A stretch of 57,521 nt of DNA, taken from the NCBI GenBank assembly GCA_030018805.1, contig JASEHL010000001.1, positions 1-57,521 of the forward strand, given 5' to 3'. This stretch comes from Patescibacteria group bacterium (GTDB lineage: Bacteria; Patescibacteriota; Minisyncoccia; Moranbacterales; UBA11712). This document shows, one piece after another, positions 12,700 to 16,015 of the stretch. Position 1 is the first letter of the stretch, and each line of letters opens with the position of its first letter. The position numbers were made by a program, and so were the translations under genes. The notes under the pieces were generated by a model. That model had not been told where the DNA came from and made no database searches. It was given only the letters and a program-made list of their open reading frames with translations.

Positions 12700-12725
12700 A
12701 ATTGCACGTTTTTGCGGTTGCCCTG
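12700..12725 (-). other. 3' half of the 16S precursor processing stem
   Basis: It is complementary to 15990-16015: 22 Watson-Crick pairs plus 2 G-U pairs out of 26, checked by hand. Confidence 0.6.
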
Positions 12726-12948
12726 TGCTAAAGTCTATTTTACCCGCCGATGAGGCGGGAACGACCATATGGGTTTGTGCCTCGATAAATCGAAGCGACT
12801 TCACCGTATCTCCCTAGAAAGGAGGTGATCCATCCACAGGTTCCCCTACGGATGCCTTGTTACGACTTCACCCTTGTTATCGATCTTGCCATGGTACCCC
12901 TTGCGAGGTGCTTCAGGCATTACCGACTCCCTTGGTGTGACGGGCGGT

Positions 12949-13921
12949 ATTTGGATTCCCGCCTATAGCGGGATCACACACCGCCGGACGAACGGTTTTC
13001 CCGTATCCTGGCGGTTTCCAACGCTGGATCAAACTGTTTTTTGAAATTATGTTTTTTGCCGAACTTTCGCATTTTGTTGCGAAGCCGTTGGATTCTTTCA
13101 AAGCCCTTGTCGGTCAGATGTTCCTTTTCCCGCATCGCGAGAACAATCTTTTTGAAAAGTTTGTAAACATCCGCCTTCTTGGCTTCGAGAGGATGGCGGT
13201 CAAGGAATGGGAAAAGGATTTCCGTCAAGTCTCGCGTGCTGGTCACTTTGAGTTTGGCATGCGGATGCCATCCATATCGTTCATACGAACAATCATAGAT
13301 TCTTCCGCAGCCGATCGTCGCGACTATGCGCTCGAGAATTTTTCGGTCATCATCCCGAAGTTCAATTTCAAACTCCGGCTTTATTTCCACTCCTCTTTTG
13401 AGAGTCTTGTGCCGGTTAATACTAACCGAGAAAGACCCTTCGCCATCAATGAATCCGGAAACATAATATGGATTCAGTTTTTTGCATTGGATTTGCTCCT
13501 TCCCAAACGGATCTTTCAAACGCGGATTGCGCTCGAAAGGCTTTCGCTTGGTACTATGAGCTCGGCTGACTTCTTGCATGGCTTGAATCAAAAATTACTC
13601 TTTGATTTTACTTTATAATTCTCGTGGTTAGTATACCACAGAATTAAAAGACCATACAAGATCTCCCTTGGTCACTCAATAAACATTTTGACGCCGTCTC
13701 GATAAACCGATACATATATATCTTATTTGAAGATGGCTTCCTCATGTACTCCCAGAGTCGCCAAATATATATGTATTTGTTGTTTATTCAAGCTGGCATC
13801 TGCTACTTTCACCCTTCAGTCCGATCCTCACGGAGTCGAACCTGTGATTTCGCTTCATGGATTCTTCAATATCCTTGGTCGGATTCACACCGACTAGCTT
13901 ATTGGGCTGCAAGGCACCCGA
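12949..13921 (-). other. about 0.97-kb intron-like insertion in the 16S rRNA 1390-1400 region
   Basis: It separates ...GGTCTTGTAC (13930..13922) from ACCGCCCGTCACACC (12948..). It contains a homing endonuclease ORF. The exact splice boundaries are not resolved. Confidence 0.7.
12974..13591 (-). CDS. LAGLIDADG homing endonuclease (single-motif type)
   Basis: 205 aa. YVSGFIDGEGSFSVSI is a LAGLIDADG motif. The ORF lies inside the rRNA insertion. Confidence 0.85.
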   Translation of the reverse strand: MIQAMQEVSRAHSTKRKPFERNPRLKDPFGKEQIQCKKLNPYYVSGFIDGEGSFSVSINRHKTLKRGVEIKPEFEIELRDDDRKILERIVATIGCGRIYDCSYERYGWHPHAKLKVTSTRDLTEILFPFLDRHPLEAKKADVYKLFKKIVLAMREKEHLTDKGFERIQRLRNKMRKFGKKHNFKKQFDPALETARIRENRSSGGV

Positions 13922-14152
13922 GTACAAGACCCGAGAACGTATTCACCGGGACATGGCTGATTCCCGATTACTAGCGATTCCGGCTTCATGGAGTCGAGTT
14001 GCAGACTCCAATCCGAACTGGGACCGGCTTTTTGGGATTGGCTCCGCCTCGCGGCTTGGCTACCCATTGTACCGGCCATTGTAGCATGCGTGTCGCCCAG
14101 GGCGTCAGAGGGCCATGCTGATTTGACGTCATCCCCGCCTTCCTCCCAGCCC

Positions 14153-14329
14153 GATGCGCACTCGCTGCGCGAGTGCTAAATTAAAAACTTAAAATTAAAA
14201 GTGAAAAATTATGGAGTCTCGCTGCGCTCGACAATTTACTTTATACATAAATAGTCATGCGCGAAGCGCATACCAGAATTTTTACTTTTTCATTTTTACT
14301 TTTTAACTTAGCGCGCGTAGCGCGCATTG
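14153..14329 (-). other. ORF-less intervening sequence in a 16S hairpin loop (E. coli about 1130-1140)
   Basis: The native stem cccagccc (14145-14152) pairs with gggctggg (about 14330-14337) and is extended by an insert. The insert arms aaattaaaaacttaaaattaaaagtgaaaaatt and aatttttactttttcatttttactttttaactta are complementary and have a 7-nt period. Confidence 0.6.
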
Positions 14330-15005
14330 GGCTGGGCAGTCTCGAGTGACACTTGTAACACTCGACAGGGGTTGCGCTCGTTTCCCGACTTAACGGAACA
14401 CCTCACGGCACGAGCTGACGACAACCATGCAGCACCTGTCCAGCACCCTCGAAGGCTATCATGTTTCCATGATATGCAGCTGGATTTCAAGCCCTGGTGA
14501 GGTTCCTCGCTTATTGACGAATTGAACCGCGTGCTCCACCGCTTGTGCGGGTCCCCGTCTATTCCTTTGAGTTTTAAGCTTGCGCTCGTACTTCCCAGGC
14601 GGCCTGCTTAACGCGTTAGCTACGGTCCTGAAAGGGTCGATACTTCCAAGACCTAGCAGGCAACGTTTAGGGCGTGGACTACCGGGGTATCTAATCCCGT
14701 TCGCTACCCACGCTTTCGTGTCTCAGCGTCAGACAAAGCCCAGTTCACTGCCTTCGCCTTTGGCGTTCCATATGATATCAACGCATTTCACTGCTACACC
14801 ATATGTTCCATGAACCTCTACTTGTCTCGAGTGATGACGTTTCAGATGCGGCTCCAACGTTGAGCGCTGGAATTTGACATCTGACTATCATCGCCGCCTA
14901 CACACGCTTTACGCCCAATAAATCCGGATAACGCTTGAGGTCTCTGTATTACCGCTGCTGCTGGCACAGAGTTAGCAACCTCTTATTCCTACCGTACCGT
15001 CAGAA

Positions 15006-15437
15006 GTGAGATGTGAGAAGTTAGATGTGAGATTTTATTTCCATCTTTCCCTTAACCTGTATAATTGTTTGCCGATAATATCGTATTCTTCTATTAATTT
15101 ATCGGCAATATTTTTTTCTCCAAATTCAGCATTAACTGAATCTTCTATATGACTCATAACTTCATTACATGAACCTAGAGATCGAGTTAGATACAGCTTA
15201 AATTCCGCTATAGATCTTCCGTATCCTTCTGCAATATTCGAATGAATCGAATTTGCAGCTCTGCACATTTGATCTCTTAGATGTTTTGCTTCAAAGGGAA
15301 ATGTTTTTGTATAATTTACAATCTGTGGATACAATTTTTTTGATCTTTGGTAAACATCAAGATCTTTAAAACTTTTAATCATATCCAAATTATACAACAA
15401 TTATATCTCACTTCCCACCTCTCAACTCTCACCTCTT
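15006..15437 (-). other. intervening sequence in the 16S V3 helix carrying a four-helix-bundle protein gene
   Basis: The arms gtgagat/gtgagaa/gttagat/gtgagat (15006-15033) and atctcac/ttcccac/ctctcaa/ctctcac (15405-15435) are inverted 7-nt tandem repeats. The flanks are normal 16S sequence (..ACCAGAAGAAG and CTTCTGACGGTAC..). Confidence 0.65.
15035..15400 (-). CDS. four-helix-bundle protein (23S rRNA-intervening-sequence protein / Avd-like family)
   Basis: 121 aa. FKDLDVYQRS...FPFEAKHLRDQMCRAANSIHSNIAEGYGRS...EFKLYLTRSLGSCNEV fits the family pattern. It is in the same orientation as the rRNA. Confidence 0.8.
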   Translation of the reverse strand: MLYNLDMIKSFKDLDVYQRSKKLYPQIVNYTKTFPFEAKHLRDQMCRAANSIHSNIAEGYGRSIAEFKLYLTRSLGSCNEVMSHIEDSVNAEFGEKNIADKLIEEYDIIGKQLYRLRERWK

Positions 15438-15989
15438 CTTCTGGTAGAAAAGAAGTTTACAACCCGAAGGCCTTCATCCTTCACGCGGCGTCGCTCGGTC
15501 AGGCTTTCGCCCATTGCCGAAGATTCTCGACTGCAGCCACCCGTAGGTGTTTGGGCAGTGTCTCAGTCCCAATGTTGGGGATCATGCTCTCACATCCCCT
15601 ACCCGTCATAGCCTTGGTGAGCCATTACCTCACCAACAAGCTGATAGGACACAGGCCGCTCCTCAAGCGATAAATCTTTACTCCGAAGAGAACTATCTCG
15701 CATTATTCCCCCTTTCGAGGGATTATTCGAGACTCAAGGGTACGTTCCTATGCATTACTAACCCGTTTGCCGTGCCGCCAAAGGCGGCACGCGACTTGCA
15801 TGCCTTATCCACGCCGCCAGCGTTCATCCTGAGCCAGGATCAAACTCTCAATAAGAATTATTTCGATAAAATAAATTACCAAAATAATTTTGAGAACCCG
15901 GAATTTTTTGATAGAAATTCCGGCGAACTCTATAAAAGTAACTGATTTTGAATAGATCGTTTGGCACTTCCCCGACGTTACGTCGGGGC

Positions 15990-16015
15990 CAGGACAACCA
16001 CAAAAACTTGCGATT
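15990..16015 (-). other. 5' half of the 16S precursor processing stem
   Basis: caggacaaccacaaaaacttgcgatt pairs with 12700-12725. Confidence 0.6.

Follow-up and report, generated by a model that had tools for sequence, protein, structure and literature searches.

How a 16S rRNA gene of which less than half encodes rRNA could yield a functional ribosomal RNA is the question raised by this locus. In the window (the whole 57,521-nt stretch of DNA that was analysed, from a Patescibacteria group bacterium), the gene runs from 15855 to 12817 on the minus strand, and BLAST comparison with the 16S loci of 29 relatives assigned 1448 of its 3039 nt to rRNA. The preliminary description had put about 1.45 kb of rRNA within a 3.04-kb gene and had recognized three inserts of about 0.97, 0.18 and 0.43 kb, and these estimates agree with the measured inserts of 971 nt (12949-13919), 176 nt (14153-14328, in helix 40) and 444 nt (15004-15447, in helix 17). 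The rRNA is thereby divided among four minus-strand segments. Segment 1 (15448-15855), from the 5′ end to the 5′ strand of helix 17, and segment 2 (14329-15003) were placed with the Rfam SSU model and BLAST against relatives; segment 3 (13920-14152), which ends in CUUGUACUC, was placed by BLAST against relatives, and segment 4 (12817-12948), which runs from ACCGCCCGUC to GGAUCACCUCCUUUC and contains helices 44-45 and the anti-Shine-Dalgarno end, by an RF02542 match at 12831-12948 together with BLAST. Alignment to the Rfam SSU covariance model, the check originally suggested for the insert coordinates, forced the 3′ end of the model into 13891, and the size of the helix-40 insert was 181 nt by cmscan versus 176 nt by BLAST. 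The Rfam match at 13891-15855 was rejected as the entire gene, since BLAST against relatives and RF02542 place the true 3′ part, 132 nt at 12948-12817, beyond the 971-nt insert. This insert lies between E. coli positions 1397 and 1398, and the subject coordinates run unbroken across its junction in 20 uninterrupted relatives.

Taken as a whole, the locus is probably best explained as a functional, single-copy 16S gene of an ultra-small, Moranbacteria-like CPR bacterium, interrupted by a IIC-like group II intron and two hairpins with heptad arms, the processing of which is predicted from sequence. Only one 16S copy is present in the 99.7%-complete genome, its four rRNA segments are 92-97% identical to those of close relatives, and the universal motifs are all intact. 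This preservation argues against an assembly chimera or a decaying pseudogene with the functional 16S gene absent from the bin, a very improbable reading that would draw on the draft state of the genome (82 contigs), its missing 5S gene and the difficulty of assembling rRNA regions. Such a reading would also have to accommodate an intron at the identical junction in 12 independent genomes, the recovery of the helix-17 cassette in an independent metagenome contig, a precursor stem that encloses the entire 3.04-kb unit, and a window that is a single 57.5-kb contig. Interrupted 16S genes, correctly given in the preliminary description as known in CPR bacteria, and unlinked rRNA genes are traits of the whole lineage and have already been published (10.1101/705046; PMC11270868).

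The 971-nt insert (12949-13919, minus strand) is assigned, by its match to RF01998, its junctions and covariation, to the group II (IIC-like) introns, with the ends 5′-GGGUGCC...CCAAAU-3′, and to a family already described in CPR 16S genes. It scored 48.9 bits against RF01998 (gathering score 35) and 30.3 bits against RF02001, just under the gathering score of 32, and the Rfam domain V/VI model RF00029 gave no match to the intron at E ≤ 1. A genome search over the class collected 12 family members, from different families of the class, at the identical junction between ACUC and ACCGCC. In all 12, EBS1 (GAGUAC, 13746-13751) is invariant; it is complementary to the last six exon bases, IBS1 (GUACUC, 13920-13925) at the end of segment 3, and is located in the loop of a covarying hairpin with both-side changes at 7/7 pairs. 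Domain V (12981-13014) is a 34-nt hairpin, CCGCCAGGAUACGGGAAAACCGUUCGUCCGGCGG, with a CGC triad, a 2-nt bulge and one extra unpaired A in the 5′ strand. Its 14 pairs are formed in 100% of cells and include 5 compensatory pairs, compared with 20-58% pairing in slid controls. Domain VI (12954-12975) possesses a bulged A (12956 or 12957) 7 nt from the 3′ end, and the intron terminates in AU. In the domain VI stem, compensatory changes are seen when three close copies (those of the window, L019 and L025) are compared, and domain VI differs in some distant family members. Besides the RF02001 and RF00029 results, two features count against the assignment. In the domain V triad, G is paired with C here, whereas the usual G-U wobble is present in 7 of 8 distinct relatives, and the 5′ end is GGGUGCC here and GGGUCGCC in other members instead of the canonical GUGYG. 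A 5′ terminal linker is found in all rns-1396 members (PMC13190283), and by analogy such a linker would fit an intron start composed of GG followed by GUGCC.

Domain IV of the intron contains an intact minus-strand ORF (12974-13579; PF00961, E = 1.3e-19), the 3′ end of which runs through domain V. The encoded protein shows the characters of a single-domain LAGLIDADG homing endonuclease at the sequence level, namely one motif (VSGFIDGEGSF), an acidic catalytic residue and similarity to characterised enzymes; the conserved core begins near KLNPYYV, and the 169-aa core matches single halves of I-OnuI, I-SmaMI and I-LtrI with E of about 1e-36. LAGLIDADG genes are mostly carried by group I introns, and the 23S gene of the same genome holds a group I intron. 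It is nevertheless extremely improbable that the 971-nt insert is itself a group I intron, as RF00028 found no match in the window, the last base is C instead of U in the 5′ exon and U instead of G in the insert, and the group II hallmarks domain V and EBS1 are present.

As a group II intron, the insert closely resembles known elements. Group II-like inserts with LAGLIDADG_1 have been described at 16S position ~1400 in CPR bacteria, at the site named “16IS9” (Tsurumaki et al. 2024, PMC11270868), and the IIC family rns-1396 of giant sulfur bacteria combines the 5′ linker with a single-motif endonuclease in domain IV (Liu et al. 2026, PMC13190283). Like these introns, the one described here interrupts the decoding-centre strand, has a ribozyme that is small, IIC-like and without evident EBS2, lacks a reverse transcriptase, and carries in domain IV a single-motif LAGLIDADG_1 gene whose product is most like fungal mitochondrial enzymes. 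In contrast to them, its junction is counted as 1397/1398 rather than 1396-1400, and its domain V triad contains G-C instead of G-U. The introns of Thiomargarita (Salman et al. 2012) are likened to it by description only. The preliminary description had left the 971-nt insert unnamed. In the proposed mechanism, the intron would hold the 5′ exon through the 6-bp EBS1-IBS1 helix, and splicing with ligation of the exons may follow, both of which are considered necessary given that the 1400 region is split by the insert and that a second 16S copy is absent. The endonuclease, acting as a homodimer, could cut intron-less alleles and so promote homing at the DNA level.

The 444-nt insert (15004-15447, minus strand), defined by folding and comparison with relatives and placed in helix 17 by the cmscan alignment, is a Coxiella-type intervening sequence by its architecture and gene content. 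It is predicted to fold into a rod (z = -8.6) with a closing stem of about 30 bp (28-31-bp arms), and the arms at 15405-15435 and 15003-15033 each consist of four 7-nt units of the GGTGAGA type or its inverse. In the loop of this terminal-inverted-repeat stem, at the tip of the rRNA helix, lies a minus-strand gene (15035-15382) for a 115-aa four-helix-bundle protein (PF05635 23S_rRNA_IVP, E = 3.6e-24; TIGR02436, E = 7.7e-23), which matches PDB 2GSC and has relatives at 57-96% identity in other CPR bacteria. The cassette is absent from relatives with 96-97% identical flanks and present at 95% identity in the metagenome contig L096. The intervening sequence of Coxiella has a length of 428 nt, a stem of 28 bp and, upstream of the ORF, tandem GACAGAT heptamers, and is cut midway along its stem by RNase III (PMC4990558). 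The 23S intervening sequences of Coxiella burnetii and Leptospira, with their PF05635 “S23p” ORF (PMC4990558), thus share with the helix-17 insert a length of ~430-440 nt, a terminal-inverted-repeat stem of ~28 bp, tandem heptamers just upstream of an ORF in the loop, and a position at an rRNA helix tip, the rRNA gene being single-copy and the genome reduced. In contrast, theirs are located in 23S helix 45 and the present one in 16S helix 17, and the present one belongs to a set of about 10 paralogous cassettes per genome, mostly outside rRNA genes. The Coxiella protein is probably not expressed (PMC4990558), which suggests that the four-helix-bundle gene here may be cargo without a role.

The 176-nt insert in helix 40 (14153-14328, minus strand), characterised by folding and a repeat search, is a gene-less, AU-rich hairpin with 7-nt periodic arms, and its fold is likewise rod-like (-89.7 kcal/mol, z = -8.45). 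Its core (14177-14291) recurs with 90% identity over 115 nt at C35:4596-4710, in the 23S leader, and partial copies are found on other contigs. Helix 40 is lengthened in all order-level relatives, by ~30 to 180 nt, on a conserved base of CCCAGCCC/GGGCUGG, so that the insert is a lineage-wide extension, here housing a repeated element. The helix-17 and helix-40 inserts share one design, with inverted arms of about four 7-nt units, and both belong to a genome-wide family of hairpins. The earlier statement that the three insertions are unrelated holds in that they are structurally different, but not for these two, which have the heptad-arm design in common.

The genome contains 64 inverted period-7 pairs, compared with 0-2 for other periods, and 310 period-7 arrays, compared with 17-64 for periods 5, 6, 8 and 9. 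PF05635 has 11 matches in this genome and 1-9 in each of 26 of the 31 relatives, and was found in 1 of 14 control genomes. Among 24 PF05635 loci from relatives, heptad arrays flank 20, with inverted arms at 15. The clades of PF05635 proteins share families of arm units, a link that was read from the tree and the TRF output, automatic calling of heptad units being noisy, and this match between gene lineage and arm units suggests that the protein may recognise its own arms. The clade nearest the PF05635 protein of the window occurs in 16S helix 17, in 16S helix 6, in a pilus-operon spacer and in the wzy-secA spacer; with close relatives in helix 6, helix 17 and protein-operon spacers, the idea that this clade is a lineage specific to 16S sites was rejected. 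No recognisable transposase is encoded in the cassettes. The sites occupied by PF05635 cassettes vary from genome to genome, and it is from this distribution that a mobile cassette is inferred. What appears to be new is that PF05635 cassettes with lineage-matched heptad arms are multi-copy and, judging from the genomes compared, differ in site between genomes. We tentatively propose, at slightly less than even confidence, that both hairpin inserts belong to a widespread but unrecognised class of mobile cassettes, which form hairpins with heptad arms of about four units, occur with or without a lineage-matched PF05635 (Avd-like) gene, and are not specific to rRNA. In the favoured explanation of the locus, both would have arrived as heptad-arm cassettes of the genome-wide family, which insert at hairpin tips or in spacers able to accommodate them.

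The same excess of period-7 arrays could also be read as the product of local replication slippage, which would extend hairpin tips in 7-nt steps without mobility, four-helix-bundle genes being merely frequent in such spacers. Coxiella strains vary in the copy number of the heptamer unit (PMC4990558), polymerase slippage has been proposed as the cause of the heptamer excess in bacteria (PMC4692102), and a transposase was found neither in nor beside the cassettes. However, slippage is unlikely, as it leaves unexplained the recurrence of the 115-nt helix-40 core in the 23S leader, the joint travel of protein clades and arm-unit families across genera and orders, the presence of one protein clade at no fewer than four different kinds of site, and a near-identical helix-17 cassette in L096 that is missing from relatives with 96-97% identical flanks. 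The proposed mobile cassettes resemble the GGGAATC / GGGGAYT heptamers of Xanthomonas and Nostoc (Rehm et al. 2015, PMC4692102), which are likewise scattered 7-nt tandem repeats that favour about four units and often form convergent pairs, that is, inverted repeats in intergenic spacers. As with Rickettsia palindromic elements, the hairpins also occur inside genes. In contrast to the Xanthomonas/Nostoc heptamers, the units here are mostly AT-rich and vary from locus to locus, which excludes G-quadruplex formation as the shared principle; that work (PMC4692102) did not connect the repeats with four-helix-bundle genes.

The transcription unit provides the setting in which these inserts would be processed. 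A promoter-like site, TTGACA-16-TG-TATAAT, at 16598-16625 on the minus strand (12/12 consensus matches plus the TG extension) is the only strong one predicted on that strand between murD and the 16S gene and a candidate pre-16S start with a leader of ~740 nt; the true start is uncertain because a 27-bp hairpin with a U-rich tail (16412-16459) intervenes between the predicted promoter and the gene. The 5′ half (15990-16015) and 3′ half (12700-12725) of a precursor stem, both on the minus strand, are complementary over 26 bp with 22 Watson-Crick pairs, 2 G-U pairs and 2 mismatches, exactly as first described. In the comparison of 11 relatives, pairing holds in 89% of cells and both sides have changed at 11 of the 26 pairs, whereas sliding the partner by 1-3 columns lowers pairing to 37-48%. 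This complementarity of leader and trailer, which brackets the 16S gene and is kept by covariation across the order, supports the suggested RNase III precursor type of stem, and the genome encodes RNase III (245 bits versus a cut-off of 166). Folding energies on both strands (-21.6 kcal/mol on the minus and -20.2 kcal/mol on the plus strand, z of about -6) also uphold the strong bidirectional intrinsic terminator noted after the 3′ stem half (12652-12686), a 14-bp stem between an A tract and a T tract; a pattern scan for terminators gave no match at this site because the stem takes up the T tract. No tRNA or 23S gene follows the 16S gene in the scanned window, and the sole 23S gene is located on another contig, C35, behind nusG-rplK-rplA, in line with the initial view that the two genes are unlinked. 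A phage-like downstream island was considered as the cause of the separation and rejected, because none of the 16S loci of 20 relatives has a 23S gene within 1.5 kb. Separate 16S and 23S transcription units are a clade-wide trait of Patescibacteria (Brewer et al., bioRxiv 10.1101/705046), from which the present arrangement shows no notable difference. The 16S gene would thus be transcribed alone, without 23S, as a precursor of ~3.3-3.9 kb ending at the terminator; its leader and trailer can pair in the order-wide 26-bp stem, where RNase III may cut.

RNase III may also act on the inserts. Cleavage of the closing stem of the helix-17 cassette, predicted by analogy with Coxiella, without religation would give a two-piece 16S rRNA held together by helix 17, and the helix-40 rod could either be cut in the same way or be kept as a surface extension. 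Retention of one or both hairpins in the mature 16S rRNA as surface expansion segments, as in eukaryotes, is considered rather less likely than removal. Both inserts are located at peripheral helix tips, helix 40 is extended on its conserved base in every order-level relative, helix 17 of relatives also bears gene-less heptad hairpins, and the persistence of the hairpins fits tolerated structural extensions. Against this, near-perfect stems of at least 28 bp are RNase III substrates in a genome that encodes the enzyme, the same architecture is cut in Coxiella (PMC4990558), and a 444-nt protein-coding insert within a ribosome would be unusual. In addition, CPR rRNA-gene inserts have been reported to be removed from transcripts (Brown et al. 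2015, as cited in PMC11270868).

The gene is a well-resolved example of a known CPR peculiarity, and because its junctions are exactly placed, its ribozyme and endonuclease complete and its processing stem conserved, it offers a clean test case for a ligated versus a fragmented 16S rRNA. With three inserts, one of which lies at the 1392/1406 primer site, the organism would be missed by amplicon surveys or give products of the wrong size. Through the helix-17 and helix-40 hairpins, rRNA intervening sequences with their “S23p” ORF, a puzzle for 30 years, become connected with a multi-copy family of cassettes that also occurs in operon spacers and in the 23S leader, and the old idea of intervening sequences as mobile elements becomes directly testable. 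The heptad arms are a candidate nucleic-acid target for PF05635, a family without known function outside diversity-generating retroelements. If the mobile-cassette proposal is true, the classical Coxiella and Leptospira 23S intervening sequences, and perhaps the paired heptamers of Xanthomonas, would be just the part of this class that has been noticed, and such hairpins would simply be tolerated at rRNA helix tips, in rRNA leaders and operon spacers, and even within reading frames.

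A single bacterial SSU rRNA gene, on the minus strand, was returned by the Rfam search of the window (1238.6 bits), and no second 16S gene was found, leaving it the only copy in the 1.02-Mb, 82-contig, 99.7%-complete genome. Block limits were taken from BLAST comparison with 29 16S loci of relatives, which aligned four minus-strand blocks at 15855-15448 (408 nt), 15003-14329 (675 nt), 14152-13920 (233 nt) and 12948-12817 (132 nt). The covariance-model alignment replaces the tip of helix 17 with 419 nt and assigns 181 nt to the helix-40 loop; it squeezes the 3' end of the 16S into 13891, which was corrected by BLAST against the relatives. 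Subject coordinates run gap-free from 13920 to 12948 in 20 uninterrupted relatives, and a separate Rfam match at 12831-12948 covers the 3' part. Because of the four blocks, this contiguous junction and the separate match, the gene is 3039 nt long with an rRNA portion of 1448 nt, and its inserts of 444, 176 and 971 nt match the sizes in the preliminary description, every observed detail of which was upheld for this gene (BLAST, Rfam, stem, terminator and linkage).

The 26-nt flanks form 22 Watson-Crick and two G-U pairs with two mismatches, and the same stem surrounds the 16S gene in 11 relatives, where 89% of cells are paired (37-48% in slid controls) and 11 of the 26 pairs are compensatory; the proposed processing stem is thereby borne out. 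The gene for RNase III is on contig C29 of the same genome (85-738). The bidirectional terminator described after the 3' stem half has a 14-bp stem flanked by A and T tracts and indeed folds on both strands. Upstream, a perfect sigma-70-type promoter match was found at 16625-16598 by sequence motif. Because a perfect 27-bp hairpin (16412-16459; -33.7 kcal/mol, z = -11), followed by the U-rich tail GUGUUUUGU, intervenes between this promoter and the gene, the true transcription start is uncertain; the hairpin could be a terminator, an attenuator or another repeat element.

The sole 23S gene is located on contig C35 (362-4444, minus strand, 4083 nt), directly behind nusG, rplK and rplA, which confirms that the 16S gene is unlinked from it, and no 23S gene or spacer tRNA was found within 1.5 kb of the 16S gene in 20 relatives. 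Unlinked rRNA genes have already been reported in Patescibacteria (10.1101/705046). The 23S gene on C35 (1-7606) contains a group I intron (RF00028) at 1749-1981, and a LAGLIDADG ORF at 1-255 runs off the contig end; the 3' end of the 23S may be interrupted like the 16S. The whole assembly yielded no 5S gene. Immediately after the 16S terminator comes a minus-strand, phage-like integrated island (461-12622), which encodes an SLT lysozyme, an ERF recombinase, a YqaJ exonuclease, an MT-A70 methylase, a giant LPD38 protein of 1108 aa and an M23 peptidase and ends at an integrase. The island was considered and rejected as the cause of the 16S/23S unlinking.

At the site of the largest insert, uninterrupted relatives read CUUGUACUC followed directly by ACCGCCCGUC (intron-less junction ...GGTCTTGTACTCACCGCCCGTCAC...); since their sequence spans the junction, the insert limits are exactly 12949-13919, with the ends 5'-GGGUGCC...CCAAAU-3'. 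We take the insertion point to lie between E. coli C1397 and A1398, with the primer sites 1392-1406 and 1492-1510 as anchors of the numbering. The Rfam model group-II-D1D4-1 matches the insert with 48.9 bits (gathering score 35) and D1D4-3 with 30.3 bits (gathering score 32), and the domain V/VI model RF00029 gave no match to the intron. A search with the endonuclease core in 401 genomes of the class yielded a distinct group at 58-72% identity, and these finds together with three close copies make up 12 introns at the identical junction. Throughout the 12 introns, GAGUAC is unchanged and can pair with GUACUC, the final six bases of the 5' exon, as the EBS1-IBS1 contact of intron domain I; this EBS1 occupies a hairpin loop, and every pair of the hairpin stem (7/7) is altered on both sides. 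In the same comparison, the 14 pairs of domain V (12981-13014) are paired in 100% of cells, five of them compensatory, against 20-58% for slid-partner controls. In its 34-nt length, CGC triad and 2-nt bulge, this domain V resembles that of IIC introns. The stem of the domain VI hairpin is wholly rewritten among the three close copies, and the bulged A of this hairpin stands 7 nt before the AU 3' end. As judged from these comparisons, the 971-nt insert is identifiable as a group II intron carrying a homing endonuclease gene. It fits the group II-like inserts with LAGLIDADG_1 and without reverse transcriptase that cluster near position 1400 of CPR 16S (site 16IS9, 53 cases; PMC11270868), as well as the "rns-1396" family, described as IIC introns in which a 5' linker is present and domain IV encodes a single-motif endonuclease (PMC13190283). 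Three points of the intron are deviant, namely the non-canonical 5' end (GGGUGCC), the lack of an RF00029 match, and a G-C pair at the triad, where G 13012 of domain V pairs with C at 12986, a G-U wobble in seven of eight distinct relatives.

The family search identified the intact LAGLIDADG_1 ORF at 12974-13579 on the minus strand, with a product of 169-201 aa. The conserved core of this protein aligns, at about 1e-36, with one half of the fungal enzymes I-OnuI, I-SmaMI and I-LtrI, which have two domains, so the endonuclease is single-domain and presumably homodimeric. In the comparison loci L025 and L034, a one-base deletion in an A run shifts the frame of the N-terminal 33 codons (13484-13579); the nucleotides of this region, which overlaps the D1D4-1 motif, are kept despite the frame change. 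The region is probably constrained as ribozyme RNA rather than as protein, and the real start codon of the endonuclease gene is uncertain. Nine 16S loci of relatives (L020, L021, L027, L047, L048, L054, L055, L058 and L062) carry a second intron family 2-3 bases further on, between ACUCAC and AAUAAAAG...; some copies are ORF-less (457-460 nt), others have a LAGLIDADG gene 33-45% identical to that of the window, and L021 matches group-II-D1D4-1 with 36.6 bits. Two group II-like families seem to compete for neighbouring decoding-centre sites. A homologous intron, with a 98% identical endonuclease, resides in a CPR-type 16S labelled "Candidatus Bathyarchaeia archaeon" (DATGZC010000039.1), an archaeal label that is probably a binning or labelling error.

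The three insertions had been regarded as unrelated; the gene is indeed interrupted by three inserts, but two of them belong to one family of hairpins with heptad arms, that is, inverted arms built of 7-nt units. The helix-17 insert folds into a rod with a closing stem of about 30 bp (z = -8.6), and its minus-strand arms (15405-15435 and 15003-15033) consist of four units each, GGTGAGA GTTGAGA GGTGGGA AGTGAGA and their inverse. The loop carries a gene (15035-15382) for a 115-aa four-helix-bundle protein (PF05635 / TIGR02436), whose nearest solved relative is 2GSC from Xanthomonas. By its predicted fold and gene, the insert is classed as an intervening-sequence cassette. The same architecture is found in the Coxiella 23S intervening sequence, which comprises 428 nt with a 28-bp stem and tandem GACAGAT heptamers before the ORF, and whose stem RNase III cuts midway, the ends not being rejoined (PMC4990558). 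An earlier count of PF05635 ORFs in CPR 16S inserts gave 18 among 380 genes (PMC11270868). In relatives with 96-97% identical flanks, the cassette is absent or the site holds unrelated inserts. The metagenomic 16S of a close relative, L096 (JGI Ga0272446_1011885), is 95% identical over 705 nt spanning the cassette and flanks and has four further inserts, absent from the window, at about 15792/15771, 15676/15669, 14965 and 14688 (window positions), two of them with LAGLIDADG_2 genes; intron content turns over faster than rRNA diverges.

The helix-40 insert folds into an approximately 85-bp rod (z = -8.45) with AU-rich, 7-nt periodic arms. Helix 40 is longer by roughly 30 to 180 nt in every order-level relative, mostly through heptad-periodic AU-rich arms, whereas other orders of the class show the usual tetraloop version, so that the "insert" represents an extension shared by the lineage. 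Over 115 nt, the core of the insert (14177-14291) has 90% identity to C35:4596-4710, a copy in the same orientation that precedes the 23S gene by 150-270 nt, and partial copies occur on other contigs of the genome; the core is a repeated element.

Across the genome, TRF found 310 period-7 arrays of at least three copies, compared with 34, 64, 17 and 30 for periods 5, 6, 8 and 9, and 64 inverted period-7 pairs, compared with 0-2 at other periods. PF05635 matches number 11 in this genome and 1-9 each in 26 of 31 relatives, and occur in one of 14 control genomes. The paralogs of this genome score above the Pfam cut-off, and each is bracketed by heptad arms whose units are particular to it. Two more are in the window, one in an intergenic cassette at 32266-32727 (ORF 32322-32687) with AATTTTC/TTGAAAA arms and the other at 30962-31228, flanked by AACATGG/TGTTCCA units. 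Period-7 arrays flank the ORF in 20 of 24 loci of relatives, and at 15 of these they form inverted arms on either side. As read off a 38-protein tree and the TRF output, clades share arm-unit families (AGTATYT, AAGAATT, AATTTTC and GGTKRGA). The clade nearest the window protein (57-96% identity) always has GGTKRGA-type arms at differing sites: helix 17 of the 16S (window and L096), helix 6 of the 16S (L094, L095 and L097), between pilC and a pilin gene (Wolfebacteria genome L090) and between wzy and secA (Kaiserbacteria genome L092). The match of arm to clade, the differing sites and the absence from relatives with nearly identical flanks argue for a mobile cassette of gene and cognate arms; no transposase is present in the cassettes. 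In Xanthomonas, paired convergent GGGAATC heptamer repeats, preferably of four units, were read as G-quadruplex formers (PMC4692102); the AT-rich units of this genome are unable to form quadruplexes. On contig C33, gene-less hairpins (17776-17850 and 18300-18385) of GTGAGAN units, as in the helix-17 arms, bracket a putative ORF that, by eye, may be NrdR-like.

In the proposed processing, the pre-16S would be folded by the leader-trailer stem, which RNase III could cut. The intron would splice via the branching pathway with ligation of the exons, considered necessary because the insert splits the decoding-centre strand and there is no second gene, and the endonuclease may maintain the intron through DNA homing to alleles that lack it. 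For the helix-17 cassette, RNase III cleavage within the stem with no religation is somewhat more likely than not; the 16S would then consist of two pieces held together by what is left of the stem. For the helix-40 rod the chances of being cut likewise or retained are about equal. CPR rRNA inserts are described as absent from transcripts (Brown et al. 2015, as cited in PMC11270868).

The preliminary interpretation is thus largely right, and the interrupted, unlinked CPR 16S gene is another case of kinds already known. To these, the present analysis adds the exact layout of the 16S gene, proof by comparison for both the processing stem and the group II core, and the assignment of the helix-17 and helix-40 inserts to a multi-copy family of hairpin cassettes with heptad arms, a family that ties the classical intervening sequences of rRNA to elements located elsewhere than in rRNA genes.
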